This document shows, piece by piece, positions 9,882-63,472 of a stretch of 64,000 nt of DNA; position 1 is the first letter of the stretch, and each line of letters starts with the position of its first letter. The notes below the pieces were generated by a model, which did not search any database, had not been told where the DNA came from, and saw only the letters and a program-made list of their open reading frames with translations. The translations under genes and the position numbers were made by a program. This stretch comes from a virus (taxonomy: Duplodnaviria > Heunggongvirae > Uroviricota > Caudoviricetes): IMG/VR virus record IMGVR_UViG_3300038530_001701. One strand, written 5' to 3'.

Positions 9882-10115
9882 ATGATTGAAGGTGTAATCT
9901 TAAGACTTATTATTGCACTGGCTGCTTTGGTAATTGGTCTGATTGGTACATGGTTTGTTCTAAGAACATTCGATGCATCTAGTAAGATTGATTTCAAAAA
10001 AGCTTTTGATAGAATTGAAGGTGACGCTAAGGCAATGGCAGTCTACTATGGTCTGCGATTCATTGGTGTTGCATTTATGGTTGGCTTTGTTATTGGTAAA
10101 GCCGTGGGCTTCTAA
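9882..10115 (+). CDS. holin (class II-like, two transmembrane helices)
   Basis: 77 aa, two hydrophobic helices, charged C-terminus; immediately upstream of endolysin. Confidence 0.55.
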   Translation: MIEGVILRLIIALAALVIGLIGTWFVLRTFDASSKIDFKKAFDRIEGDAKAMAVYYGLRFIGVAFMVGFVIGKAVGF

Positions 10116-10126
10116 GGAGGCTCATC

Positions 10127-10714
10127 ATGAAAAGACCACTTAGAGAGGCACTACTATTCTTGGTAGTGCTTCTTTTCCTTGTATTTGCACAGGATGCAAA
10201 CGCAATATCTGATAGGTATGACAACTCATTTAGGAAGTGGTCTGCCTATTACCTTCCAGAAGTTCCTTGGTACTGGCTAAAAGCACAGTGCTGGCAGGAA
10301 TCCCGCCTAAAACCTGAAGCCGTTTCTCCTGTTGGAGCTAAAGGTGTTTGTCAATTCATGCCTCCAACTTGGAAGGATATGCAAACAAAACTTGGTTTTC
10401 AAGGTGACCCTTTTATCCCAGATTTAAACATTCAAGCTGCTGCTTCTTATATGAGTCAGTTGCGTGATGTATGGGATAGAAGACAACGAACAAACATTCA
10501 AGTGCATTCTCTTGCTCTTGCTTCCTATAATGCTGGTACAGGTAATATCCTTAAAGCACAGAAGGTAAGTGGTAACAAAAGACTTTGGTGTGAAATACAA
10601 CCACATCTTGTTGAGGTTACTGGTAAGCACAGTAAAGAGACTACACATTACGTAGAGGTTATATGGGACTATGTTAAAGAGCTTATTCAACGTGGCAACT
10701 TCCCCACTTACTAA
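10127..10714 (+). CDS. endolysin, lytic transglycosylase (SLT domain) with N-terminal signal/SAR sequence
   Basis: 195 aa; signal peptide MKRPLREALLFLVVLLFLVFAQDANA; SLT motif WQESRLKPEAVSPVGAKGVCQFMP (E-S...GxxQ). Confidence 0.75.
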   Translation: MKRPLREALLFLVVLLFLVFAQDANAISDRYDNSFRKWSAYYLPEVPWYWLKAQCWQESRLKPEAVSPVGAKGVCQFMPPTWKDMQTKLGFQGDPFIPDLNIQAAASYMSQLRDVWDRRQRTNIQVHSLALASYNAGTGNILKAQKVSGNKRLWCEIQPHLVEVTGKHSKETTHYVEVIWDYVKELIQRGNFPTY

Positions 10715-11972: not shown

Positions 11973-11999
11973 GAAACATTCCTCACACGCATAATTAAA

Positions 12000-12035
12000 C
12001 CCCGAAACCTGTAACAAGGTCTCGGGGCTTTTTTG
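12000..12035. terminator. bidirectional rho-independent terminator between convergent modules
   Basis: ccccgaaacc-tgtaacaa-ggtctcgggg hairpin followed by cttttttg; sits between + gene ending 11972 and - gene ending 12038. Confidence 0.6.
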
Positions 12036-12037
12036 TG

Positions 12038-12256
12038 TCACTTCAAATGTAAATAGAGGTCTTCATATCCACCGATATGCTTACCTTCAGAATCAAAAAC
12101 CTGTGGGACTGTCCTTAGTCCTAGTTTCTTGATATTCTCAAACATTTCAGGGTGATCGTCTAGACTGACGTAACTATACTCAATCTTCTTACGATCTAGC
12201 AAGTCTTTTGCTTTAACACAACTAGGGCATTGCTCAATTCCAAATACAGTATACAT
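12038..12256 (-). CDS. glutaredoxin / NrdH-like redoxin
   Basis: CPSC active-site motif (GIEQCPSCVKAKDLL); likely start MYTVFGIEQ at 12256 preceded by AAGGAG; adjacent to RNR genes. Confidence 0.7.
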   Translation of the reverse strand: MYTVFGIEQCPSCVKAKDLLDRKKIEYSYVSLDDHPEMFENIKKLGLRTVPQVFDSEGKHIGGYEDLYLHLK

Positions 12257-12266
12257 AGATTTCTCC

Positions 12267-13946
12267 TTATTGGCAAGCAGCACATTCACCTTTTGAAGCC
12301 TGAATACCAGCCTTAGAGTATACGTAATACAATCCAAGAATGTCAGGGTTCAAGAAAGCTTCTTTGTGAACTTGACTAATGTAGTCTTCATCTTCGCCTG
12401 CTGCAAAGAATAGGTTTAGTGATTGCCATTGATCAAGGTGTTTACCTCTAGCAGCAGCAAGTCGAATAACATCAAATTGATTGATTTCAAAAGCTGTCTT
12501 AAAGACTTCCTTTTCCTCATCTGTCAGCCAATCTACGTGCTGAACACTTCCCATGTTATCACGAATGTCCTCAACATTTGCTCTGTTGAAAACTCCACGC
12601 TCTTTCATCAATTCTAACAGCACGGGGTTAACTCTGTCAATCTCACCTGCTGGTGTTCTTTGAGTGTATACCATAGCTGTATCAGGATTGATACCTTCAG
12701 ACACACCACCCATAATCAAAGCAGTGGATTTTGTAGGAGCTACAGCAAGCAAGTGTGTGTTTGCTCTATTGTATCCCTTACACCAATCAGGTTCACCCCA
12801 CTGTTCTGCAAGCCACTTAGTAGCTCTTTCAGCTTCACTGCGAATGTTCTTGAAGATGGTGTTGTTAAGCATGTGTGCTTCCAAACCACCGAAAGGCAAA
12901 CGCTTCTTCTGAAATAATGTGTGTAGACCACAAACACCAAGACCAAGTGCACGACCTTTCTTAGTAGCAGCAATAGCTTTCTCAAGACCCGGAATGTTCT
13001 TACCTCTTTCAAGGAATTCCTGAACAACACAGTCAAGGAATACGATTGCTTGGAATACAGCATCAGTATCTTTCCAATCATCATAGAACATTAGGTTCAT
13101 AGATGCAAGTACACAAGTGTAAGTATAGTCAGGGCCTGAGTGTAGGATGATTTCATTACACAGTTGTGGAGCCTTAATATCAAGTCCATGATCAACATAC
13201 CACTGAGGGCGCTTCAGGTTAGCTTTGTCAGGGAAAAAGAAGTAACCCTTACCAGTCACCATCTTTGTTCTCATAGCTGTCTGGTAGCGATCTAGGGCGT
13301 CCCTATCTCCATCTAGGATTCGATCTATAAAATCAGCAGAAACATTCCAACCAATATTGTTACCATCAGGTTCCGTTTCAAGATATTTAGCAACCTCGTA
13401 AAAATCCCCATGATCAATAGGTAGATAACCAGCCCAACTTCCCCTACGCGCCGTGCCTTGGGCGACATATTCCATATCCTTTTGGAACAAACTGAGAACA
13501 GGGAGAACTCCACTTGTCTTGCCGCCGACACTAATATCGCTGCCCCTAGCACGAATATCACCAAGGTATCCAGCAGTACCGAAACCCATCTTCGTGAGCA
13601 TCGATGTTTCGTGTCTTGCTTTATAGATTTCATCAATACTATCCCCCACATAACTTCCAGCACAACTTACAGGAAGACCTCTATTTGTTCCGGTATTCGC
13701 CAGAACGGGAGTTGACGGTGACAGCCAACCTTTCCACATAAGATCAAAGAATATCTCTTTCCACTTAAGGGGGTCTGGTGTGTGTGCTGATAATGTTCCA
13801 GCGATTCTCATGTACTGTTCTTTGGGGTTATCTGCTTGATACAGGTACTTCTCTTTAAATAGCTGGTAGCCACCTGTAGACCACCAAGCGGGAGCTAACC
13901 CTTGTTCTTGTAATTTCTTTCGTTCTTCGGATAGTTTATCGTACAT
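12267..13946 (-). CDS. nrdA: ribonucleotide reductase class I alpha subunit (short form, no N-terminal ATP-cone)
   Basis: 559 aa; RNR large-subunit-like core, C-terminal redox pair ECAAC; followed by nrdB. Confidence 0.8.
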   Translation of the reverse strand: MYDKLSEERKKLQEQGLAPAWWSTGGYQLFKEKYLYQADNPKEQYMRIAGTLSAHTPDPLKWKEIFFDLMWKGWLSPSTPVLANTGTNRGLPVSCAGSYVGDSIDEIYKARHETSMLTKMGFGTAGYLGDIRARGSDISVGGKTSGVLPVLSLFQKDMEYVAQGTARRGSWAGYLPIDHGDFYEVAKYLETEPDGNNIGWNVSADFIDRILDGDRDALDRYQTAMRTKMVTGKGYFFFPDKANLKRPQWYVDHGLDIKAPQLCNEIILHSGPDYTYTCVLASMNLMFYDDWKDTDAVFQAIVFLDCVVQEFLERGKNIPGLEKAIAATKKGRALGLGVCGLHTLFQKKRLPFGGLEAHMLNNTIFKNIRSEAERATKWLAEQWGEPDWCKGYNRANTHLLAVAPTKSTALIMGGVSEGINPDTAMVYTQRTPAGEIDRVNPVLLELMKERGVFNRANVEDIRDNMGSVQHVDWLTDEEKEVFKTAFEINQFDVIRLAAARGKHLDQWQSLNLFFAAGEDEDYISQVHKEAFLNPDILGLYYVYSKAGIQASKGECAACQ

Positions 13947-14929
13947 TAGAATCTAAACCCTTCTTTATTCCAGTTTCTTACATATTGATTACCTTGCGAT
14001 GAAAAGAAGTCTTGCATCTGATAGCCGTTAATACCTTTGTAAAAGTAATCGGCAATTGGGTTATATTCAACTTTATAGAGTTTCTCATAACCTAAATTCT
14101 CAAGACAGTAGTTAATACGACTCTGAGCAAAATGCTCTAACTGAATCTCAGTTATTCCGTCGATCTTTCCTTTTTCAAAGATTTTTCGGATGATAACTCT
14201 TTCATGATCAAGTACTGTATTCGCCGCCTCGATAATGTCCTGTTTAAGACTTTCTTCTTCTTTCTCACTTAGTTCACCAGCCTCTTTCATTTCTTTCTTC
14301 AAGGTTCTAAACAACCATGCAGCAGCTTCTGCATGAAGGTTCTCGTCTCTTGCTGAGAAGTTAATACCGCTAACCACATTCAACAGTTTGTTCTTACCTA
14401 AACTTTGGAAATGCTTTAGGAAAGCAAATGAAGAATATAGAATAGCCCCTTCTCCGAATGTGAAAGCACCCAAAGATCGCAAATCATCTTTTCCGTGTAG
14501 AGTGTTTTCAAGAAAGTCAATTCTCGCTTTAAGCTCGGGATCATCTAAGTAGCTCCTGTAAAATTCATCGTTGGCAAGACCGAGTTCTTCATTAATCTTG
14601 GCATAGAACTTGGCATGTACCTGAAGTTCCATAGCACCAAACAGTGCTGCCATTGGTTGAATATCGGCTGGTCGTGGGAACTTTTTAAACACAAAGTTCA
14701 ACCAGAATTCATCACCGATAATCTGCTCGTATAGTGTAAAAAGTTTTAGTGTTGTGATTACGCCATGCCTTTCAGATTCAGACATATTGACAAGAATATC
14801 TTGCTTGTCTTTATGTACTTTCACTTCATCATGGGGCCAAAAATGTTGAGCCTGCTTATCGGCAAACTCAACAGCTTCTGGATAATCAACGGTAAATTCA
14901 TTTTTTGGTGTTCTAATTTGAACCGCCAT
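13946..14929 (-). CDS. nrdB: ribonucleotide reductase class I beta subunit
   Basis: 327 aa ferritin-like; conserved R2 motifs (FAFLKHF.., DENLHAEA). Confidence 0.85.
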   Translation of the reverse strand: MAVQIRTPKNEFTVDYPEAVEFADKQAQHFWPHDEVKVHKDKQDILVNMSESERHGVITTLKLFTLYEQIIGDEFWLNFVFKKFPRPADIQPMAALFGAMELQVHAKFYAKINEELGLANDEFYRSYLDDPELKARIDFLENTLHGKDDLRSLGAFTFGEGAILYSSFAFLKHFQSLGKNKLLNVVSGINFSARDENLHAEAAAWLFRTLKKEMKEAGELSEKEEESLKQDIIEAANTVLDHERVIIRKIFEKGKIDGITEIQLEHFAQSRINYCLENLGYEKLYKVEYNPIADYFYKGINGYQMQDFFSSQGNQYVRNWNKEGFRF

Positions 14930-14932
14930 TTA

Positions 14933-15331
14933 TTATTCTCCGTCAAATGATTGTTTTATTTTCTCAAAATAGTCAGACTCAGAGCGTCTGCTCATACGTC
15001 TCAAATCTTCTTTCATGAAGATGTCTTCTGTTGAGTAAAGGTAGGCACCAATTGAAGCTGCGCCTGATCGTCTCCATTCAAAGTCAGTCCTTTCACTGCC
15101 CTCTACTCTGTAAGTATCAACCACTTGATTTCGTAGATTTCTATGATTACATTTGACAACCTCATAAGGTCGTGTTATGTCCATGCCATTTGTAAATAGA
15201 ATCTTGGCAAATTGTGTTGGCTCTGGTTGTGGGTCAACCCAATCATCAAGTAGTTGCAAATCTGAAAAACTTAGGTAAAAGAAGTTCATATAGTTTGTTT
15301 CTCCGTAATCCTGTTGAAAAATCTTCTCCAA
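14933..15331 (-). CDS. hypothetical protein
   Basis: 132-aa ORF packed between nrdB and thyX. Confidence 0.4.
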   Translation of the reverse strand: MEKIFQQDYGETNYMNFFYLSFSDLQLLDDWVDPQPEPTQFAKILFTNGMDITRPYEVVKCNHRNLRNQVVDTYRVEGSERTDFEWRRSGAASIGAYLYSTEDIFMKEDLRRMSRRSESDYFEKIKQSFDGE

Positions 15332-17601: not shown

Positions 17602-18540
17602 TTAACCTCCTGCTACGTTCATTAGAGTGTTTTCCATTTCTTCTTTTGTCTTCAAGTTTACACGACCACGGTTCCAGTGTCCACATTCTTTACACTGATA
17701 AGCGTCAAAAGTTGACAGGTTCGTGCTGACTGTTCCGTTCTTAACCAAGTCAGTTGAAGCGCACACTGTACAGGACTTCTGACCTGTCTGTACGTACTGT
17801 GCTACGTTTACATGTGTAGAGTACCACGGAGCCACTTTCTTGTAAAGTTTTTCAAGCAAAACAACATCGTACACATTATAGTCAAGCATTTCCTCGAAGG
17901 CTGATTCATCACCATTCATGCAACGTGACCAAAGGCTAAACCCACCAGTCTGTACCTTATTACCAATACCAAGATACTCACACACACTATCAAGCCTGTT
18001 TGAAGGGAATCTGAAGCGTTGCTTTAGAATCTTCAAAGTGTCAACTGTCTTATACGGCTTAGGTGGTTTGAAGCCATGATAGAGCATACGAGCATTCAAC
18101 GTAGGCATATCAAAACGATCACCATTATGAGCAATGATAATATCAGCTTCGTTGATCATATCATAGATAGATGCAATCAATGGTTGATCATCTTCATTTT
18201 CCATATTCTCAGGGTAGTAATGCAGCGAGTCAGATGCAACTGTATCATCGCCAAGCCACTTAGCAGCCCAAGTGAGAACGTAACCTTCTTGAGCTACCTG
18301 ATTCTGACCAACATTCTGCTTAAACCTTCCCCAAACCCATGCAAGTGTTGGTGCTGTTTCAATGTCAAGTACAAGAATCTTTGCTTTAGGTTTTTCCTGT
18401 TTGGTTGGTTCACTACCAAAAGCTTTCTTCCAATCCCAAGCAGTAGACTTAGGGATACCTGTGATCTTCTCAACTGCTCTGTAGGAATAACCATCAGCAA
18501 GCATTCCTAATACTCTTTCTTGAATTTCTGTCATTTCCAT
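17602..18540 (-). CDS. HTH-domain / DEDD-type 3'-5' exonuclease fusion with C-terminal zinc ribbon
   Basis: N-terminal HTH (YSYRAVEKITGIPKSTAWDW); DnaQ-like ExoI motif ILVLDIETAP; C-terminal CTVC...CKECGH. Confidence 0.5.
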   Translation of the reverse strand: MEMTEIQERVLGMLADGYSYRAVEKITGIPKSTAWDWKKAFGSEPTKQEKPKAKILVLDIETAPTLAWVWGRFKQNVGQNQVAQEGYVLTWAAKWLGDDTVASDSLHYYPENMENEDDQPLIASIYDMINEADIIIAHNGDRFDMPTLNARMLYHGFKPPKPYKTVDTLKILKQRFRFPSNRLDSVCEYLGIGNKVQTGGFSLWSRCMNGDESAFEEMLDYNVYDVVLLEKLYKKVAPWYSTHVNVAQYVQTGQKSCTVCASTDLVKNGTVSTNLSTFDAYQCKECGHWNRGRVNLKTKEEMENTLMNVAGG

Positions 18541-29398: not shown

Positions 29399-29628
29399 TT
29401 TACGTCCTCCGGTGTCAAATAAATTGCCTCAAAAGAACTATCGTTAAGTTCAGCGAGGGCTTTAAGTTCCATAAGCTCAGTCTTCAGCGTCTCATATTCA
29501 AGACGAGTGATGGTTGCTGTAACCCGCTTGTGTGTAAATTTTGGGCGGGGGTGCCTATCTTTGTTGATAATAGGGTTGAACCTCTCATCAAGCTTTTCAA
29601 AAATCTCAGTTACTGTTGGTTGATTCAT
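29395..29628 (-). CDS. hypothetical protein
   Basis: 77-aa ORF, stop/start overlap with Prs-like gene. Confidence 0.35.
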   Translation of the reverse strand: MNQPTVTEIFEKLDERFNPIINKDRHPRPKFTHKRVTATITRLEYETLKTELMELKALAELNDSSFEAIYLTPEDVK

Positions 29629-29821
29629 AACAAATCTCCAGAAAATATGGCTTTGCCTTCTCTTTTACTTCTTCAGCTACCTCTACTGAACCCAACTCAT
29701 GAGTCCATACAGGTCTCCCCATAATTTCTTCAATAAATTCATGAAGATCACTGAAGGGGCCACACAAAATTCCTGTGTATGCTCCAACGATTGCTGCTTG
29801 TCTTTTATCTAATCTACTCAT
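29606..29821 (-). CDS. hypothetical protein
   Basis: 71-aa ORF; GGAGG RBS directly downstream of a GGTCTCGACAGATTTTCA repeat copy. Confidence 0.35.
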   Translation of the reverse strand: MSRLDKRQAAIVGAYTGILCGPFSDLHEFIEEIMGRPVWTHELGSVEVAEEVKEKAKPYFLEICYESTNSN

Positions 29822-29823
29822 CT

Positions 29824-30069
29824 TTACCTCCTAGGTCTCGACAGATTTTCAGCCCCATACATGGTCTCGGCAGCTTTTCTAATCTCATCGATAGAGTAAA
29901 CTCCCGGTAGTCTCAGTCTCAGATAACTATCAGAGACGTACAAGATTGGGCCAGACAGGGCTACCATACCACAAGCGTAGTCTCTACCCAACTCATCTTT
30001 TGGGCCATCTTGATTGTAAATTCCAGCAAGACGCTTAAGGTCTCGACAGATTTCTACAGATTCACTCAT
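29824..30069 (-). CDS. hypothetical protein (N- and C-terminal codons lie inside repeat copies)
   Basis: 81-aa ORF; start MSESVEICRDL and end MYGAENLSRPRR both encoded by copies of the 18-bp repeat. Confidence 0.35.
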   Translation of the reverse strand: MSESVEICRDLKRLAGIYNQDGPKDELGRDYACGMVALSGPILYVSDSYLRLRLPGVYSIDEIRKAAETMYGAENLSRPRR

Positions 30070-30395
30070 ACAAATTTACCTCTTATTGCGTCCCAAGACC
30101 TTACAATAGTTTCAGGCTCGTCGTCAACCCAAATGTCAACCTCGATACCTTCTTCTCTCATAAACTCAGCCTTACCTTTGTGACCTGTGAAGTATACCTT
30201 GTAACCTTTTTCTTTAAGGAAATCAAGGTCTTCTGGAGCTACATGAGACTTCCTGTATGTTACCACAATTACATGCCAATTGAAATGCTCGAATACTTCC
30301 ATCACACTTGTAAAAAGATGTGGATGGTCACTAATTGTTTGGTCGAAATCGAAGGCTATTGTCTTAGGTCTCGACAGATTTTCAGTTCCATACAT
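30066..30395 (-). CDS. small HAD-superfamily phosphatase-like protein
   Basis: Likely start MYGTENLSRPK at 30395 (GGAGGA RBS); HAD motif I FDFDQT; N-terminus encoded by repeat copy. Confidence 0.45.
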   Translation of the reverse strand: MYGTENLSRPKTIAFDFDQTISDHPHLFTSVMEVFEHFNWHVIVVTYRKSHVAPEDLDFLKEKGYKVYFTGHKGKAEFMREEGIEVDIWVDDEPETIVRSWDAIRGKFV

Positions 30396-30428
30396 AGAAA
30401 AATCCTCCCTAAAGTATATGTACATCGA

Positions 30429-30458
30429 AGTATACACACACTCGGGGAGGATTGTCAA
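30429..30458 (-). promoter_or_regulatory. sigma70-like promoter for leftward (minus-strand) module
   Basis: On minus strand TTGACA-18 nt-TATACT about 35 nt upstream of the ATG at 30395. Confidence 0.5.
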
Positions 30459-30688
30459 TAAGTTCTCGACAGATTTTTATAGAATACCTTTTATGGGTAC
30501 AAAGATACCCAATCTGGTTTTTCACGGTTAGTCCATTCAACTCTCATAGGACGTTCACGACTACGCCATTCTACAAGAAAAGTTGCAGGATAGTAGAATA
30601 TCTGTACAATAATTGCAAGTATTCTTTCACAATAATTCTCCAATAACCTATAGATATTAATAGATAGTAGAAGATAGTAAATTAACCT

Positions 30689-30708
30689 TATAGAATATCT
30701 ATAGAATA
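30689..30708. promoter_or_regulatory. direct TATAGAATA repeats (half-sites of ATTCTATAGAAT palindrome) in divergent control region
   Basis: ccTTATAGAATAtcTATAGAATAc between divergent promoters; same palindrome family recurs at 63379 and 63435. Confidence 0.45.
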
Positions 30709-40079: not shown

Positions 40080-41480
40080 ATGGCCGTAACAATCGTATCA
40101 AATGAAGACAAGGTAGAAATGCTGTACTGCTTTACGCAGCATGAGGACACTCTGACCTCTATCGGTGAGGACTTTGGAGTGAGTCGAAAAACTGTTCGCC
40201 GCTGCATTGACGAGGTTAATAAATTCCTCGCTGGAATTCAGGTAGGTGATACTATCAATCTGAAGACTGATGAGGGGCTTCTGGAAGTCACTGTAGCTCT
40301 CGAAGACAAAGAGCTTGAAGACACTATGCCTGTAGCTGTTCGCTTCCCTGATGGTGTTGTGGACTATGTAGAACTTCATCAGCTCATGGATGGTGAGCAA
40401 ATGAACGAAGTGGCTGAACGTGTCACTGAAGAAGTTGAAGCAAGTGAAATTGTAGAGACAGTTGCCAACAAAGGTCTGTCTGTAGGTGATAGTGTACGTA
40501 TCCGTAAGGACTCTCACTTCTATGGTGATGGTTATGGTAATCCAATCGATCAAGTCGGTACGGTTGCCTCAATAGAAAACGGAGTTATTCTGCCAATACT
40601 TGTACGTTGGGAGGAAGACGGTCTTAACAGCTACGATGAATCTGATCTGTATGTTGTTGAACCTGAGCCTGAAGTTGAGGAAGTTACTGAAAACGCTCAG
40701 TATTTTGTAACTGCTCCACAGGATTCATTGACAATTGTTCGCATTGATCAGGACACTGGCGAAGTTAGTCAGCGTCAAACAAACAAACACAATGAGAACT
40801 TTGGCAATCTTCGTGATATGATCAAAGCAGACCAGTCACAAGAATGTCTGAAAGTTGTCTACGAGGCTCTTGACACCACACGTATGCTTGAGTCATACTC
40901 TGTTGGTCGGGTTAAGGTGAACCCACAAACTGAAAGTGTTGTGTTTGTTCGTCAAGATGGTTCAGAACGTGCAGTTCCAGACGACATTGCAATGGACATT
41001 ATCACTACTGTTCGTGAATATGGTCGTGACAGTGGCGAGAAACTTGTTAAGTTCCTTGACAAGCTTATGACTAACGTGAGCTTCAAAGCTATCGAAGGTC
41101 TGTATCGCTTCATGAAGCACAACTGTATCGAAATCAATGACGATGGTTCAATTCAGGCTTGGAAAGGTGTTGCAGAAGACTTGCATAGCATTAGCTCAGG
41201 TAAGATTGCAAACAGCCCAACTTGCCCTGTTCGTGCAGATGGTCGAATCGACAACAGCGGTTTCGGAACTGAGATTCGAGTAGATCGCAGTGAAGTTGAC
41301 GACGACCCTGATGCTACCTGTTCACATGGTCTGCATGTTGGTAATCGCAGCTACGCAGAGAGCTTTGGTCGCACCCTACTTTCTGTTAAGGTAGAGCCAC
41401 AGGACGTTGTAGCTGTTCCAAAGGATTACAATGGTGCTAAGATGCGCTGTTGTGCATACACTCCGCTCTTTGCGGTTTAA
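40080..41480 (+). CDS. rIIB: rIIB-like protein (extended, 466 aa) with N-terminal HTH
   Basis: C-terminal region AWKGV..DDDPDATCSHGLHVGNRSY..VKVEPQDVVAVPKDYNGAKMRCCAY parallels T4 rIIB YAWKVV..DDDTQTCSRGLHVCSKSY..VKVHPRDVVSIPIDYNDAKMRTCQY; immediately follows rIIA. Confidence 0.75.
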   Translation: MAVTIVSNEDKVEMLYCFTQHEDTLTSIGEDFGVSRKTVRRCIDEVNKFLAGIQVGDTINLKTDEGLLEVTVALEDKELEDTMPVAVRFPDGVVDYVELHQLMDGEQMNEVAERVTEEVEASEIVETVANKGLSVGDSVRIRKDSHFYGDGYGNPIDQVGTVASIENGVILPILVRWEEDGLNSYDESDLYVVEPEPEVEEVTENAQYFVTAPQDSLTIVRIDQDTGEVSQRQTNKHNENFGNLRDMIKADQSQECLKVVYEALDTTRMLESYSVGRVKVNPQTESVVFVRQDGSERAVPDDIAMDIITTVREYGRDSGEKLVKFLDKLMTNVSFKAIEGLYRFMKHNCIEINDDGSIQAWKGVAEDLHSISSGKIANSPTCPVRADGRIDNSGFGTEIRVDRSEVDDDPDATCSHGLHVGNRSYAESFGRTLLSVKVEPQDVVAVPKDYNGAKMRCCAYTPLFAV

Positions 41481-50181: not shown

Positions 50182-50248
50182 TACCTAACTGGTAGGGTAA
50201 CCTACCTAACAATTTAAAAGCCTTGTAGGGCTTCTAAGGAGGTTTAAA

Positions 50249-50689
50249 ATGGCATTAGCATTCGCAATCTACATGATCGGAATTCTTCACTCAATCGATA
50301 GCGGTGGTTGGGTATTTGCCCTACTTATTGGTATGTTTATCTATACTGGAATTAAGGTAGGTATCAAACACGATGAGTTACATTCAAGGGATGCTACTAG
50401 TAAACAAGAAGATGAAAGGGATTTCTATACCTATTCTGGTAAGTGTGTAACTAACTTTGCTATTGTATTTACATGTGCTATTGCAGCAACATGGTTAGCA
50501 CCAGACAAAGAAACATCTTATACAATGTTAGCAGCCTATGGCCTGTCAGAAGCCTACGAATTCGCTTCAGAGAATGAAGACGTTCAACGTATCGCAACAA
50601 AGAGTCTCAAATTAATCGAAAAACATATTGACGAGTACACAGAGAATATGGATAATGAAACTCAAGATACACAAACAGAAGGAGAGTAA
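50249..50689 (+). CDS. membrane protein
   Basis: 146 aa, 3 hydrophobic helices, acidic C-terminus; RBS aaggagg. Confidence 0.45.
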   Translation: MALAFAIYMIGILHSIDSGGWVFALLIGMFIYTGIKVGIKHDELHSRDATSKQEDERDFYTYSGKCVTNFAIVFTCAIAATWLAPDKETSYTMLAAYGLSEAYEFASENEDVQRIATKSLKLIEKHIDEYTENMDNETQDTQTEGE

Positions 50690-50691
50690 CT

Positions 50692-51237
50692 ATGAGCATA
50701 AATAAAATGACAGCAGACCAAAAGATGAATCTTCTACTTCTTAAAGACTTCATCAAGTCAATTGACCCTATTAATTTCGATATGGGTACATACTGTGAAG
50801 TAGAGTCAGACAATGAAATTGTTATGGAAACCCTAGGTGATTATGTAACTGAAGACGATGCATCTTATGGTGGTAGTCTTCAACTTACACCATTCTTACT
50901 ACAGAAATTACAGGAAAAGACTAACCCTCATACCTGTGGTAGTCATATGTGTCTTATGGGATGGTCTTACAGTGTACCAGAACTACAAAAGAAACTATCT
51001 AAAGACCGTTATAGATCATGGTCTGATGTGAGTGAAGAACTATTCGGAACACATGATAGTGATGGTGTAGGAGTAGGTAAATATCTATTCGGAGTAGATT
51101 GGGAAGCTGGTATAACCCCTGAAGGTAACTCTACCAATACAATTGAACATGCTCTATACCGTATTGACAGAGTATTAGCAGCAGTAACAGATGAAGACTA
51201 TAAGGCTCTTAGACAAGAGTATACAGACCTAACATAA
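50692..51237 (+). CDS. hypothetical protein
   Basis: 181-aa ORF, ATGA coupling. Confidence 0.45.
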   Translation: MSINKMTADQKMNLLLLKDFIKSIDPINFDMGTYCEVESDNEIVMETLGDYVTEDDASYGGSLQLTPFLLQKLQEKTNPHTCGSHMCLMGWSYSVPELQKKLSKDRYRSWSDVSEELFGTHDSDGVGVGKYLFGVDWEAGITPEGNSTNTIEHALYRIDRVLAAVTDEDYKALRQEYTDLT

Positions 51238-51254
51238 CAACCAAGTAAACCATA

Positions 51255-51290
51255 AAGCCTATAGGAGAAATCTTATAGGCTTATTTTATG
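51255..51290 (+). terminator. rho-independent terminator
   Basis: aagcctata-ggagaaatct-tataggctt + attttatg. Confidence 0.55.
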
Positions 51291-52760
51291 TATACTGACA
51301 ATATAATGACAGTATACAAACAGATTATTAAAGGTATAGTGACAGTATATTGACAATAATCTATGGCGAGGAATTAGAATAAGTTATTAAATAAACTATT
51401 CAATAAAGGATACCGGAGGAAGACGAAGGAGGTATCCAAGAAAGGGAAACTAATAGGAACCTAACAGTATACAAACAATATACTAACAATAATTCTACAG
51501 ATTATTATATAGTATATATGGTTAGTATGTAATACTATTATATAGGGTATTATTCCTGCGGAGCGTATAATTTATTTTAACATGGAAATTCCAGTTTGTC
51601 AATAGCCAAACTTCATTTCTTTTCTAATTTCCTTCGGAAATGTAGAAATTCTCTGCTTAATAATAACAGGGCAACGTGTAAGGCATAACAGGGCAGAAGA
51701 AAAAGGTCGGCAGGCTTTACTTTAAGGGCGGCAGGGGCTTCTGTGAGGCTGTCTGAGAAGACTTGGACTTTGGCTAGAGGCATTGTACCAGTTGAGATAG
51801 AGCATCATTGTAGGGCTTCTGAGAGCGTCCTAAAGCTATAGTAGAAAATGATCTAAAAAGTAGGCTATAATGCTCCCCGCGACATATATACATCTGATAG
51901 TCTATTTTTAGGGTGAATAACACTCGTATCTGTCATAATCTGTATGAATACACTCAAGAATGTTTATTTGTTAGGCTCGGCAATTTCCATGCCAAGGTCT
52001 CGACAGATTTTCACATATAATTTCTAGGTCTCGATAGATTTTTACAAGGTCTCGACAGATTTTCACATAGAGGGAGAGATTTTTGTGGAGAGATTACCAG
52101 ATAGGATAAGATATGCGGAGAATACTTCTTTAGTAAATCACTGGGTTTTTATACAGTACTATAGATAGCAACCTAATAGGTCAGCAATGCATCTAAATTT
52201 TCATTCAGGCAGGAGCGGTGATTGTCTCGTCCGTCGAAACAGACCACTCCCTAGAAGTCAAGTGTTTTATTTAAAATTCCTCAATAAGATTACCTCTCTA
52301 ATCTTTGACTATGCACATAGAATAGCACAACCAGAATTAATGTCAATTGTTTTTCGCTATACTGAATAGAAAATCGATAGTTATTTTTGTATTGACTCAT
52401 AGCTTGTCAATAGTGTAAAATTCCGAGGGTGGGTAAGGGGTTACCCTGAAATTTCTATATGCAAATCTAAATGAGAATAGTTATCAGAACTATTAGCAAT
52501 GGCTTATCGTTCGCATTACCTAACAATCGCGCAGGTTCGGTGTTTATCTCCTACCTTGTGTTTCGCAGCCTGTACAAACAATTATACAGACTTCAAAGAT
52601 AAATACAAGAGGTTGCAATAAAAATTTTTATGTGTTACTCGCGCCTGTGTACGCGATTAGAAGGAAGCGAGAAAAATAATTGAAAATAATGCTTGCAATG
52701 ATGTTTGTGTGTGCTAATATGTAATCACAGTCAAGGGCAACGCAGCCCATAGCCAAAAAG
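51291..52760. repeat. ~1.5-kb non-coding AT-rich region with iterated motifs (CTAACAGTATACAAACA x2, GACAGTATA variants, TATAT-rich tracts, three tandem GGTCTCGA(C/T)AGATTTTCAC copies at 51996-52069); candidate replication origin / genome terminus
   Basis: No ORF of 60 aa or more on either strand except dubious 52187..52369; direct repeats read from sequence. Confidence 0.5.
52693..52720 (+). promoter_or_regulatory. sigma70-like promoter with conserved leader (paralogous to 54126)
   Basis: TTGCAA-16 nt-TAATAT; leader ...caaaaaggtgctaGATATG shared with gene at 54200. Confidence 0.5.
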
Positions 52761-52769
52761 GTGCTAGAT

Positions 52770-52982
52770 ATGAAATATGCAGGCGACAAAAAATCATTCG
52801 TTATCCCCAAACAAGCTTTCCAAAAATTTCGCCGTGATTTAATTGCTCAGGGTGTGCCAGTGAAACCGACTGTTGACGGTAACGGATATGAGGCAAAAAC
52901 AAAGAATGATCTGTTAGTATTGAAAGCAATGCGCGGCAATGCTGGCTATCTGGTAACGATTGTAAAGGATTTACTTAAATAA
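52770..52982 (+). CDS. hypothetical protein
   Basis: ATG 52770 with AAGGTG RBS (listed ORF begins at upstream GTG 52761); 70 aa. Confidence 0.4.
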   Translation: MKYAGDKKSFVIPKQAFQKFRRDLIAQGVPVKPTVDGNGYEAKTKNDLLVLKAMRGNAGYLVTIVKDLLK

Positions 52983-52986
52983 AGTG

Positions 52987-53015
52987 TTGACATGGCCCAC
53001 GGAAGGGCCTACACT
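52987..53015 (+). promoter_or_regulatory. sigma70-like promoter
   Basis: TTGACA-17 nt-TACACT; followed by leader motif ccacagtcaaagagaaaagggcaacgcc also seen at 52726. Confidence 0.5.
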
Positions 53016-53047
53016 GTAACCACAGTCAAAGAGAAAAGGGCAACGCC

Positions 53048-53197
53048 ATGAAATCCGAATTCTCAGCAAACCAGATTTTCGCTCTTGAAGCTCAAAAGGA
53101 AGAAGTAGAAGCAAAAATCAGAAATCATGTTGGAATTGTTCCCGCATCATGGTATGATGAATTGGACGCAATCGAAATTAAACTTGTAAAGGTGTAA
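53048..53197 (+). CDS. hypothetical small protein (49 aa, below ORF-track cutoff)
   Basis: ATG at 53048 directly after shared leader motif; MKSEFSANQIFALEAQKEEVEAKIRNHVGIVPASWYDELDAIEIKLVKV. Confidence 0.35.
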   Translation: MKSEFSANQIFALEAQKEEVEAKIRNHVGIVPASWYDELDAIEIKLVKV

Positions 53198-53436
53198 TGA
53201 GAATGATTACCACAACAAGCTTGACTCATCCCACAGTAGCCAACAAGCTCCGCGTTGCATGCTTCAATGTATTGCGTAAAGGCTACAGCGTTGACCACGT
53301 TAGAAACAGTCAGGGAAGGGCCTATATCGCTGTAAGAAAGGATCGCGGTTTTCTAGTATTCACAGACCGCGACAATAACGAAATTACCAGAAAGGTAGCA
53401 AAAACACTTAAACGTAATAAGGTGAAGTTCTCATGA
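53197..53436 (+). CDS. hypothetical protein
   Basis: 79-aa ORF overlapping previous stop. Confidence 0.4.
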   Translation: MRMITTTSLTHPTVANKLRVACFNVLRKGYSVDHVRNSQGRAYIAVRKDRGFLVFTDRDNNEITRKVAKTLKRNKVKFS

Positions 53437-53801
53437 TCATATATTACTCTAGCCGTAGCAAGGCGCGTTCCAATAGAGGCAACAAGGGTACAGTAGTTGA
53501 TTGCAAATCAAATCCAAGTGTTAATGGTTCTCGTTGGGGAGTAAAAACCAAATGAAAAACAATCTCAATAAGCAAGAGAAGAAACAGCATAAAGAATTCC
53601 GTAAGTCAAGAAAAAATTCACGCGGTAAACAATGGAGTCCAGCGGCATGATGAGATCAATTCGCATTACCAAACGACTCATCCGAGCTAACATAAATAAA
53701 GCTGAAGGTCAACAAAAAGTTCACTGGCAAGAAAAATGGAACGACCTAGCAGAATTTGAAAGGGAAAGCAAGACAGACAGATAATAAAATAAATATTGAA
53801 G

Positions 53802-53827
53802 GGGCCTTGACTGGCCCTTTCTTTTTG
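53802..53827 (+). terminator. rho-independent terminator
   Basis: gggcc-ttgact-ggccc + tttctttttg. Confidence 0.55.
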
Positions 53828-54125
53828 TGTAGTCTATAAGTGTAGGCTGCGAAAAACGAAGCAGGAGACAAACACCACACCTGCATGAAATTTGACCAAC
53901 AAGCAACTATCGTGCCATGTGCATTATGCAACTAAATTTCTTCAATGTTTTCAGTTACTTACACAGAACGAATTTTAGAGGCATACCCTAGGCCCTAGTA
54001 TTGATCAGACCTAAAAGCTTATACAGGCGTTCTCAGAGCCTTCTAGAAGCATGATAAATATACAGTGTATAAGTTACTGAAAATAAACGAGAAAAATAAT
54101 TCAAAATTTTTTTTTTAAAAATCGC

Positions 54126-55977: not shown

Positions 55978-56058
55978 ACCGCAGCGTAAGAGACAGGATT
56001 TTCCCAATTTTTCTAGGCTGTACCGCAGCGTAAGAGACAGGATTTTCCCAATTTTTCT
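55978..56058. repeat. two 37-bp direct repeats (accgcagcgtaagagacaggattttcccaatttttct) separated by 7 bp, in convergent intergenic region
   Basis: Identical copies at 55978-56014 and 56022-56058; followed by 9-bp inverted repeat ggggtaata...tattacccc at ~56131-56167. Confidence 0.7.
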
Positions 56059-63343: not shown

Positions 63344-63378
63344 GTATTTACAAATTAATTATAATTATTCTATAAATT

Positions 63379-63446
63379 ATTCTATAGAATAACTATTTCT
63401 AGTATTCTATTAGTCTTCTATTACTATAATTCTTATTCTATAGAAT
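63379..63446. promoter_or_regulatory. two copies of perfect 12-bp palindrome ATTCTATAGAAT (63379-63390, 63435-63446) plus half-sites, candidate operator sites
   Basis: Read directly; lie between promoter 63316 and ATG 63473; same half-site TATAGAATA repeated at 30689-30708 in the other divergent control region. Confidence 0.5.
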
Positions 63447-63472
63447 ACTTATAAATTAACTATAGGTATATT

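Follow-up and report, generated by a model that had tools for sequence, protein, structure and literature searches.

The origin of phage lambda lies in gene O, oriL and oriR of SPP1 are bound by G38P, and ori and crr of P4 are bound by the primase-helicase alpha. The C1 operators of P1 are asymmetric sites of 17 bp. Iterons are repeats of 17–22 bp, present in 2–7 copies, that are bound cooperatively, depend on helical phase, and often lie beside DnaA boxes (PMC4980987). The promoter-early-stem-loop (PeSL) elements of T4-type phages are composites of ~100 bp that consist of a sigma70 promoter and a G+C-rich stem-loop terminator. About 50 are present per genome, in intergenic positions upstream of ORFans in hyperplastic regions (PMC2839356).

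The DNA analyzed here, referred to as the window, is a stretch of 64,000 nucleotides from a marine Felix-O1-like phage of ~87 kb that appears to be lytic. We know of no replication origin or stage-specific regulator for Felix-O1-like phages, a group that includes the therapeutic and biocontrol phages PAK_P3, KPP10, and phiPsa374. The window contains a short repeat that, as judged from sequence comparison, most likely represents a docking site for a DNA-binding protein at a probable origin, a mobile promoter cassette being less likely.

The repeat unit and cluster A

A search of the window for GGTCTCGACAGATTTTCA with up to three mismatches reveals eight copies, all of them on the plus strand. 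The chance expectation from shuffled sequences is 0.05, and eight copies were reached in none of 100 shuffles. Five copies form cluster A (29834–30479), and three form array B (51996–52065). This confirms the preliminary description, which had reported at least five copies of one orientation within 650 bp and three more near 52 kb. No further copy was found in ~81 kb of the ~86.6-kb genome, which includes flanks of 8.7 kb (left) and 8.6 kb (right) that adjoin the window in the same phage.

The repeat unit is a discrete, asymmetric site of 19 bp, A-GGTCTCG-A-Y-AGATTTT-Y-A, and for 37 distinct copies the information content outside these 19 bp is close to zero. There is no −35/−10 pair with a usable spacing (16–18 bp) inside the unit, and the flanks are also uninformative. 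Nor does the unit form a stable hairpin, with a minimum free energy of −0.5 kcal/mol for the sense strand and −1.5 kcal/mol for the antisense strand. A scan of the window showed no terminator-like match at any copy and no complementary copy on the opposite strand. Several copies (three by count) are situated inside ORFs.

Cluster A, which heads the replication operon, coincides with a divergence point and with the minimum of the cumulative GC skew. This minus-strand operon starts from a promoter, TTGACA-18-TATACT (30429–30458, minus strand), and runs from a HAD-like gene to genes that include RPPK, NAMPT, primase-helicase, PolA, and RNR. The copy at 30462–30479 (GTTCTCGACAGATTTTTA, two mismatches) lies 3 bp upstream of the −35 box, in agreement with its earlier placement just upstream of that box. 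The same arrangement is present in the relatives L008, L009, and L014, and more weakly in L013. Five lineages keep this copy next to the −35 box, and the other cluster A sites shift among gene junctions and first codons. L008 and L014 contain an additional copy between the −10 box and the Shine-Dalgarno sequence, and the L025 promoter has no site at all. Upstream of the window promoter is a gene remnant (30491–30643, minus strand), the C-terminal part of a 169-aa gene that resembles a pyrimidine-dimer glycosylase. L008, L013, and L014 have an intact version of this gene, and an unrelated gene takes its place in L009.

The HAD-like phosphatase gene (30066–30395, minus strand, with its ATG at 30395) contains a DxDxT motif and carries an exact copy at 30367–30384 in codons 5–10 (ENLSRP), so that its N terminus reads MYGTENLSRP, as had been described. 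The synonymous positions of this copy are identical in 16 of 16 pairwise comparisons, compared with 38–62% elsewhere in the gene, and are thus under constraint at the nucleotide level beyond that of coding. Close homologues of the gene also carry the repeat, including that of L015, which has a different phage backbone.

The next ORF, of 81 aa (29824–30069, minus strand), has copies on both flanks. A copy with two mismatches at 30039–30056 lies inside codons 5–10, is read in a different frame as SVEICRDL (codons 4–11) near the N terminus, and marks the 5′ boundary of the inserted ORF. A degenerate copy with three mismatches (29863–29880) lies in the 3′ part. The 3′ boundary is marked by an extended unit of 34 nt (29829–29862, plus strand) that contains the exact copy at 29834–29851. 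This unit duplicates the 5′ end of the HAD gene, and the copies at 29834 and 30367 share it with 91% identity. At the C terminus of the ORF, the copy at 29834 encodes MYGAENLSRPRR followed by the stop codon and leads directly into the Shine-Dalgarno sequence and start codon (ATG) of DUF7736 (29606–29821, minus strand), the following gene. The readings given to these copies in the preliminary description all hold.

It had also been proposed that insertions and deletions in related phages would be bounded by the repeat, and this is true in part. The 81-aa ORF is found only in the window and in L009, as a 112-aa version, and is absent from L008, L013, L014, L015, and L025; relative to these five it is an insertion with copies on both sides. 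The gene that precedes the −35-abutting copy has been exchanged, and homology ends at the border of the site. The repeat does not bound the HAD/DUF7736 junction in L008, nor the insertions and deletions that surround array B.

In all marine relatives the cluster A copies have the same orientation relative to transcription, and ~60% of them occupy one of two registers near start codons. In the first register, 12–15 nt separate the end of the copy from the downstream ATG, with the Shine-Dalgarno sequence directly adjoining the copy. The second, which is observed in two unrelated genes and in different frames, places the copy at +12 to +31. Many copies overlap stop codons, with TAA or TGA within the site, or fill short intergenic spaces. 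Among the phages compared, cluster A is specific to the marine clade. No cluster-A-like targets were found in the whole genome of phiPsa374, or in the regions of PAK_P3 that were scanned (the array locus, the primase/helicase region, and 84.0–87.5 kb).

Array B and its relatives

Array B is located in a non-coding region of ~1.5 kb (51238–52769), which contains blocks conserved among relatives and is bounded by a terminator (51255–51282) and by the next gene at 52770. All three copies are on the plus strand. Copy 1 (51996–52013) is exact, copy 2 (52027–52044, GGTCTCGATAGATTTTTA, two mismatches) follows 31 bp after copy 1, and copy 3 (52048–52065), again exact, 21 bp after copy 2. An A+T-rich stretch (51280–51560, 22–25% G+C) is found 440–700 bp from the array, the flank of which has 31–39% G+C. 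A sigma70-like promoter, TTGACA-16-TATTCT (52319–52346, minus strand), fires leftward toward the array, which is situated ~250 nt downstream of it and ahead of oppositely oriented genes. Both the −35 and the −10 box are kept in L020 and L019 (alignment A4).

Between this promoter and the array is a conserved block of 75 nt (52172–52248, minus strand) with a hairpin that folds better as minus-strand RNA. PAK_P3, Epa18, and ventosus share its core, GGTG(A/T)TTGTCTC. There was no Rfam match in the window at the gathering threshold; a sub-threshold microRNA match in the non-coding region is regarded as chance, and the window contains no tRNAs. Beside the array region is a hypervariable insertion/deletion (52440–53911) that is absent from L004.

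Every marine relative recovered contains an array of three or four copies within a conserved non-coding region of 1.5–2 kb, and homologous non-coding gaps are present in all relatives. Copy 1 is conserved in L003/L004/L020, L018, and L019, and its core also in PAK_P3, Epa18, phiPsa374, and ventosus. As an array of three copies, the core CGAYAGATTTTYA is present in phiPsa374, in PAK_P3, KPP10, and Epa18 (48 records), and in ventosus. In the cultured Pseudomonas phages, the array sits in a non-coding gap of the early/helicase region, at ~50.6 kb in PAK_P3 and ~89.8 kb in phiPsa374. Between the window and the L001/L005 lineage, protein identity is ~43%, and the sites alone have been conserved across ~900 bp of intergenic DNA. 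Similarly, in alignment A4 the sites are invariant and the spacers differ. The copies are spaced by 21–23 or 31–33 bp in the marine clade and in Nankokuvirus (PAK_P3). The spacings in phiPsa374 (22 and 28 bp) and ventosus (18 and 29 bp) are not well phased.

In L019, six exact DnaA boxes of one orientation lie 70–250 bp from the array. This is the only such cluster in the 1.59 Mb of loci examined, and no DnaA boxes were found by the array in the window, L018, or L020. Weak DnaA-like boxes in L032 were set aside, as they are inside a gene. In a more distant relative, L039, the homologous non-coding region contains a different array, of ~10 copies, as would be expected if the sites evolve together with a binder encoded by the phage. 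The phiPsa374 array and one extra copy are oriented opposite relative to the neighboring genes, and the array is ~8 kb from the 526-bp direct terminal repeats (mapped with PhageTerm) and far from the terminase gene. PAK_P3 sRNA1 and sRNA2, considered as array homologues, are not homologous and are located near the terminase gene.

A scan of 185,579 genomes with the 19-mer gave only two identical matches, both within coding sequence of Patescibacteria MAGs, and these are probably due to chance. L002, L006, and L007, which came from the metagenome scan, look like chance matches of eukaryotic-transposon type.

Possible functions of the site

The explanation we favor, with a rough probability of 40%, is that the copies are iteron-like sites for a putative phage-specified protein and mark an origin or a replication-control locus. 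The 19-bp site would be bound by a sequence-specific protein, most likely phage-encoded, and several molecules would dock side by side in the same orientation, which would make the sites iteron-like. The array of three or four copies in the large non-coding region would be the ancestral, essential locus. There it may seed the assembly of a nucleoprotein complex in the region from which phage replication starts or is controlled, and the conserved promoter firing toward the array would feed that region. The cluster at 30 kb may be an addition of the marine clade, in which the promoter and leading genes of the replication and nucleotide-metabolism operon acquired copies of the site; the same protein could then also dampen or couple the expression of this operon. 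As the repeats are short and identical, they probably recombine with one another and shuffle genes, and the gain, loss, and swapping of genes at these junctions would be a by-product. Protein binding, origin function, and operon control are all inferred here from the arrangement of the sequence. A binding site for a phage regulator, which the preliminary description had named as an alternative, belongs to the class of explanation best supported by these data, with binding itself as the predicted part.

Several observations argue for iteron-like sites. Each lineage has three or four direct repeats of 19 bp, within the range of 17–22 bp, in one orientation and with close, regular spacing. The discrete site, its phylogenetic footprint, its deep conservation, and the constraint independent of coding point in the same direction. 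So do the DnaA boxes of L019, the geometry of the array, the leftward promoter, and the position of cluster A at the skew minimum. The distance of the phiPsa374 array from the terminal repeats indicates that the array is not a genome terminus, and this also counts in favor.

Other observations count against it. Scans of ~50 ORFs with Pfam and PHROG, which have limited sensitivity, revealed no Rep-like or regulator-like protein that could be an initiator or DNA-binding candidate. The replication module is T7-like, with a primase-helicase and PolA, and a module of this kind does not necessarily require an origin-binding protein. DnaA boxes are present in one lineage only, the A+T-rich stretch is remote, and the arrays of phiPsa374 and ventosus are poorly phased. 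The many cluster A copies near a Shine-Dalgarno sequence or at +12 to +31 hint at a link to translation or transcription and not to replication. The search for a binder yielded only an HTH_23-exonuclease fusion (17602–18540) and weak HTH signals in the rIIB N terminus. For a 122-aa protein that is conserved beside the sites in L005, the AF2 model has a pLDDT of 60.7, and Foldseek gave no match below E = 1.

It is possible, although we consider it rather unlikely, that the sites are operators or roadblocks of a phage transcription regulator, similar to stoperators. A monomer beside the −35 box would repress the replication-operon promoter, and bound sites would halt RNA polymerase at gene junctions and downstream of the leftward promoter, thereby timing or capping early and middle transcription. 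This agrees with the asymmetry of the site and the uniform orientation of cluster A copies relative to transcription, with the −35-abutting copy in five lineages and the L008 and L014 copy between −10 box and Shine-Dalgarno sequence, and with the position of array B past a conserved strong promoter and before opposing genes. The many copies that overlap stop codons or lie in short intergenic spaces resemble L5-type stoperators (PMC9283540). However, there are two clusters only, with no genome-wide spread, and other strong sigma70-like promoters in the window have no site, nor does the L025 promoter. The opposite orientation of the array and extra copy in phiPsa374 does not fit, and the DnaA boxes of L019 are unexplained. 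Instead of at least 20 dispersed sites and an immunity repressor gene, eight sites and, in the scans of ~50 ORFs, no repressor-like gene were found in a phage that is apparently lytic.

An operator at the RNA level is unlikely. The sequence UGAAAAUCUGUCGAGACC in leftward mRNAs would be bound by a translational repressor at initiation regions, and the non-coding leftward transcript with its three or four copies would serve as a decoy (sponge), as in the CsrA/CsrB system; one variant would have plus-strand array RNA pair as antisense with the mRNA sites. The two start-codon registers, one of them used in two unrelated genes, would be explained, as would the location of all copies on one strand and the transcribed-looking region of the array with its conserved promoter and a hairpin that is better as minus-strand RNA. 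Yet the motif is unstructured as RNA, the transcript of the replication-operon promoter does not include the copy that precedes its −35 box, and there is no complementary copy on the other strand. The array is kept in phiPsa374 and PAK_P3, where no cluster-A-like targets were found in the whole genome and in the scanned regions, respectively. The RNA-seq-based annotation of PAK_P3 contains sRNAs and 20 antisense RNAs, none of which is over the array, and the DnaA boxes and the roughly helical spacing are given no role.

Similarly doubtful is a dual-use element, in which an ancient origin or control iteron of Felix-O1-like phages gained additional copies in the translation-initiation regions of the marine clade, next to the Shine-Dalgarno sequence or in codons 5–10. 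One factor, or an array-RNA decoy, would couple replication status to expression of the replication operon, and the copies would be portable junctions of stop codon, site, and Shine-Dalgarno sequence that move genes from one phage backbone to another.

The proposal of the preliminary description that the repeat is a PeSL-like mobile cassette, or more generally a selfish recombination module with portable homology that moves ORFs between phages, is very improbable. It lacks the defining features of a PeSL, with a unit of 19 bp and not ~100 bp, no promoter or stem-loop, and eight copies in ~81 kb. The 81-aa ORF between copies that is absent from five relatives, the swapped gene with homology ending at the site edge, the duplicated 34-nt unit of HAD 5′ end and site, and the HAD gene that brings a copy into the backbone of L015 are in its favor, and L025 has two copies at the same junction without the ORF. 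Against this, the most conserved copies, in several genera, are those of a non-coding array that flanks no cassettes, and the exact sequence is kept far beyond the needs of recombination homology.

A packaging or DNA-injection signal, either a terminase recognition site or a T5-like injection-stop site, is hardly credible. The strand-specific array in a large non-coding region and several metagenomic contigs ending within ~0.7 kb of it would fit, and DnaA boxes have also been reported near the T5 injection-stop region; but the array of phiPsa374 is remote from both the mapped ends and the terminase gene, the contig breaks coincide with the hypervariable insertion/deletion, and the 86.6-kb ENA contigs break elsewhere. 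Other readings were rejected: a promoter for a phage RNA polymerase or sigma factor (copies too close in the arrays, no consistent partner hexamer, copies inside ORFs downstream of start codons), sites for known host factors (no convincing match to CRP, LexA, Pho box, sigma54, sigma32, sigmaE, or IHF, compared by eye), and nick sites (tf and Rembedalsseter nick motifs unrelated, tandem arrays unfit).

As a short cis-element shared by uncultured marine and cultured phages, the repeat provides a directly testable handle, and the cultured carriers are already genetically manipulable systems. The loci also suggest how clusters of binding sites may be gained and lost, come to lie in the 5′ ends of coding sequences, and favor gene shuffling as a side effect.

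Comparison with known systems

Like the PeSL of T4-type phages (PMC2839356, PMC4122927) and the 41-nt promoter repeats of PAK_P1- and KPP10-like phages (PMC4309531), the repeat is a short repeated DNA in early regions, lies at the boundaries of variable ORFs, and is a probable substrate for recombination. Both of these elements are promoters, whether or not a terminator is attached, and each genome contains many of them. In contrast, the 19-mer has neither, and its best-conserved copies flank no cassette.

The stoperators of Cluster A mycobacteriophages (L5, TipsytheTRex; PMC9283540) are also asymmetric, with an orientation that follows transcription, as cluster A does here. They too lie in short intergenic gaps, overlap stops and starts, and are found next to promoters. 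They differ in that more than 20 sites are spread genome-wide in a temperate phage with an immunity repressor; here there are eight sites in two clusters, and conservation is highest at a non-coding tandem array.

The predicted recognition without dyad symmetry is shared with the C1 operators of P1. The origins of lambda, SPP1, and P4 also have repeated sites of ~18–20 bp, some of them in coding sequence and indifferent to frame, and, as predicted here, two separated clusters for one protein and transcription toward the origin. Unlike in these origins, clusters A and B are separated by 21.5 kb. The lambda iterons are palindromic and the present site is asymmetric; the binder is known and encoded nearby in lambda, SPP1, and P4, and it is putative here.

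The iteron origins P1 oriR/incA, F oriS, RK2 oriV, and pSC101 (PMC4980987) differ in that no gene for a Rep (winged-helix) initiator was found among the ~50 ORFs scanned here, in an apparently lytic myovirus of ~87 kb with a T7-like replisome. There is also no clear DNA-unwinding element (DUE) adjacent to the array, and the second cluster is partly in coding 5′ ends. A distant second group of sites overlapping a replication-gene promoter is nevertheless a feature in common with P1 incC/incA and Rep autoregulation. The array itself resembles these origins in having 3–7 repeats of 17–22 bp, ~21–23 bp apart and in one orientation, with adjoining DnaA boxes in the case of L019.

The 19-bp site and its copies in the window

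A search of the window with GGTCTCGACAGATTTTCA, allowing up to three mismatches, reveals eight matches, all on the plus strand, compared with a mean of 0.05 in shuffled sequence. Five of these form cluster A (29834, 29863, 30039, 30367, and 30462) and three form array B (51996, 52027, and 52048). No extra copies were found in 17 kb of the same genome beyond the window. The repeat is real, far from chance, and functionally constrained. The preliminary description was correct throughout on the frames and positions of the copies. The copy at 30367 is translated as MYGTENLSRP at the N terminus of the HAD-like gene (30066–30395, minus strand). The copy at 29834 is read as MYGAENLSRPRR followed by the stop at the C terminus of the 81-aa ORF (29824–30069, minus strand) and continues into the following gene's Shine-Dalgarno sequence. 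Close to the N terminus of the same ORF, the copy at 30039 is read in a different frame, and the copy at 30462 lies 3 bp upstream of the minus-strand promoter TTGACA-18-TATACT.

The consensus of 37 distinct copies, taken from the window and eleven relatives, is A-GGTCTCG-A-Y-AGATTTT-Y-A, a discrete 19-bp site with an information content of about zero in the flanks on either side. No dyad symmetry, usable promoter hexamers, or stable RNA fold were found within the 19-bp site.

The window comes from an uncultured marine phage of ~86.6 kb, whose proteins are identical in contigs of 86,602–86,744 bp. The gene set is Felix O1-like (rIIA/rIIB, NAMPT, ribose-phosphate pyrophosphokinase, T7-type primase-helicase, PolA, RNR, and a Dda-like helicase), and the nearest PolA from a cultured phage is only ~41% identical. 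Genes run on the minus strand from 12.3 to 30.46 kb and on the plus strand from 30.8 to 55.8 kb, so that cluster A is situated where the two blocks diverge, at the start of the operon for replication and nucleotide metabolism. Array B lies inside a non-coding region of ~1.5 kb (51238–52769). Other repeats are also present. Divergent promoter regions (63378–63447, 30475–30486, and 30697–30708, also 51489–51521; six matches versus 0.5 expected) are marked by the palindromic TTCTATAGAATA and by related A+T-rich repeats (TCTATAGA/ATACTA), with similar stretches in three other loci (L001, L008, and L019); these may represent UP-like elements or a second regulatory motif. At the convergent junction of the plus- and minus-strand gene blocks (55978–56058), a 37-nt sequence (ACCGCAGCGTAAGAGACAGGATTTTCCCAATTTTTCT) occurs as two perfect direct repeats 44 bp apart, and one 86.7-kb ENA contig from this phage terminates there.

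Cluster A in marine relatives

Relatives were gathered by scanning JGI metagenomes with the 19-mer, and then through homologues of the HAD-like protein and the helicase. Five lineages retain the copy next to the -35 box, at a distance of 2–3 bp, whereas the other cluster A copies shift position. They are found within codons 5–10 of the HAD gene (window, L009, and L015) or of the 81/112-aa ORF (window and L009), between the -10 box and the HAD Shine-Dalgarno sequence and past the DUF7736 stop codon (both L008/L014), or as a tandem pair immediately 3' of the HAD stop codon in L025, whose promoter is without any site. In the HAD-internal copy, all 16 pairwise comparisons show identical synonymous positions, versus 38–62% elsewhere in the gene, which places the constraint on the nucleotide sequence and not on the protein. 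A HAD-like homologue (~48% identical) is encoded at 10001–10354 of a 161-kb T4-like contig (L012), beside gp33-like and gp32 genes; it lacks the motif.

The preliminary description had likened the repeat to the promoter-early stem-loop (PeSL) cassettes of T4-type phages. PeSLs are composites of ~100 bp that combine a stem-loop terminator with a sigma70 promoter and recur ~50 times per genome in front of ORFans (PMC2839356). None of these features is found here, and the repeat is not a PeSL. The 41-nt repeats of PAK_P1- and KPP10-like phages are promoters and distinct from this element. The related proposal that copies bound insertions and deletions is borne out in part, for the 81-aa ORF and for one boundary of the gene upstream of the -35-abutting copy, but not for array B, whose copies are the most conserved and are without flanking cassettes. 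Compared with five relatives, the 81-aa ORF is inserted, and it has copies on its flanks; L025, where the ORF is absent, carries two copies at the junction. Upstream of the -35-abutting copy, L008, L013, and L014 encode a 169-aa glycosylase-like protein and L009 an unrelated 155-aa protein, and homology stops at the site's edge. In the window, a truncated remnant of the 169-aa gene, which resembles a pyrimidine-dimer DNA glycosylase gene and is intact in those three loci, is present at 30491–30643 (minus strand). There is also a duplicated 34-nt unit consisting of the 5' end of the HAD gene and the site. We read this pattern as recombination between short identical putative binding sites, a by-product and not the purpose of the element.

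Array B from marine to cultured phages

Array B was found in every marine relative covering the region, in three or four copies with spacings of 31/21, 33/21, 31/23/23, or 21/23. It always lies within a non-coding region of 1.5–2 kb, in which the sites are invariant, the spacers vary, and several further blocks are conserved. Of the two kinds of hit from the 19-mer scan, the syntenic L003 and L004 (~75% nucleotide identity to the window) retain the three-copy array. In the other kind, the far more distant L001/L005 lineage (shared proteins ~43% identical), two copies 43 bp apart head its own operon of metallophosphatase, 122-aa protein, primase-helicase, and PolA, and the sites are all that is conserved with the window within ~900 bp of intergenic DNA.

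Using the array itself as a BLAST query, a three-copy array with the core (T/C)CGAYAGATTTTYA was detected in cultured Pseudomonas phages: phiPsa374 and other Otagovirus members, Nankokuvirus including PAK_P3, KPP10, and Epa18 (48 records), and phage ventosus. In each case it sits in a 0.5–0.9-kb non-coding gap in the early region. By sequence comparison, conservation of the array family extends from marine Felix-O1-like phages to cultured Pseudomonas phages. No equivalent of cluster A occurs in the whole phiPsa374 genome or in the PAK_P3 primase region, which makes array B ancient and cluster A a marine-clade-specific addition.

The surroundings of array B show further features. The non-coding region has hypervariable flanks (50204–51480 and 52440–53911): on the left, two ORFs (50249–51237) are missing in L003, on the right, ~1.5 kb of small ORFs is missing in L004, and several metagenomic contigs break there. 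A non-coding block of ~180 nt (52418–52610, plus strand), accompanied by the promoter TTGACT-18-TAAAAT (52392–52421), shows strong conservation in L018, L020, and L004 and is partly kept in L019, phiPsa374, and PAK_P3 (part GCATTACC...CTCC.ACCTTGT). The block may encode a small RNA, although covariation in RNAalifold is only weak (three compensatory pairs) and Rfam contains no match. A conserved 75-nt block at 52172–52248 contains a hairpin, in which G-U pairs and one-sided changes fit a minus-strand RNA. Its core, GGTG(A/T)TTGTCTC, recurs in PAK_P3, Epa18, and ventosus, and its arms bear a faint resemblance to the 19-mer's GGTCTCG half. L019 carries six exact DnaA boxes (TGTGGATAA) in one orientation at 14849–15028, directly beside the array, on a 150-bp insertion specific to this relative. 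The distant relative L039 (helicase 48% identical) has ~10 head-to-tail copies of a different ~20-nt unit (ACATAAGTACAGATATTTTGCC) at 11980–12320, in the homologous non-coding region.

Possible functions of the arrays

The discrete boundary, asymmetry, single orientation, head-to-tail arrays (mostly spaced by about two or three helical turns), and preservation across genera point to a predicted DNA site that a sequence-specific protein would bind as a same-orientation array. Our tentative reading, with a probability of roughly 0.4, is that array B would be an origin or replication-control locus carrying iteron-like sites. The array geometry matches that of plasmid and phage iterons (PMC4980987), a conserved strong promoter is directed at the array, and the sites of the marine clade surround the replication-operon promoter. 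The DnaA boxes of L019, a cluster with no counterpart elsewhere in the 1.59 Mb of examined loci, also favor an origin, as does the different array of L039, which is expected if the sites co-evolve with a phage-encoded binder. Against this, the replisome is T7-like, the DnaA boxes occur in one lineage only, no A+T-rich element abutting the array was found, phasing is poor for the spacings of phiPsa374 and ventosus, and Pfam and PHROG scans of about 50 ORFs yielded no binder. The sole DNA-binding-looking domains seen, which show no link to the repeat, are an N-terminal HTH_23 domain in a DnaQ-like 3'-5' exonuclease (17602–18540, minus strand) and an N-terminal HTH-like segment in the rIIB homologue (40080–41480, plus strand), with weak HTH_11 or Sigma70_r4 matches in relatives.

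Many cluster A copies adjoin Shine-Dalgarno sequences or fall in the first 10 codons. This placement fits equally well a transcription operator or stoperator-like roadblock (cf. PMC9283540), which we consider rather unlikely, and a translational operator acting at the RNA level, for which the non-coding transcript carrying the array would serve as a decoy; the latter is improbable. The RNA model is opposed by the motif being without RNA structure, by one copy lying outside the transcript of its promoter, and by the array being kept in phiPsa374 without cluster-A-like targets in a whole-genome scan; such targets were also not found in the scanned parts of PAK_P3, whose RNA-seq-based record annotates no RNA over the array. 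A PeSL-like role and one in packaging or injection are each less probable still, and packaging termini are made unlikely by the ~8 kb that separate the phiPsa374 array from the PhageTerm-mapped 526-bp DTRs.

The presence of the array in cultured Pseudomonas phages makes its function directly testable there. No paper mentioning the motif was found. The repeat is a previously undescribed family of asymmetric putative binding-site arrays, of a general kind that is already known.
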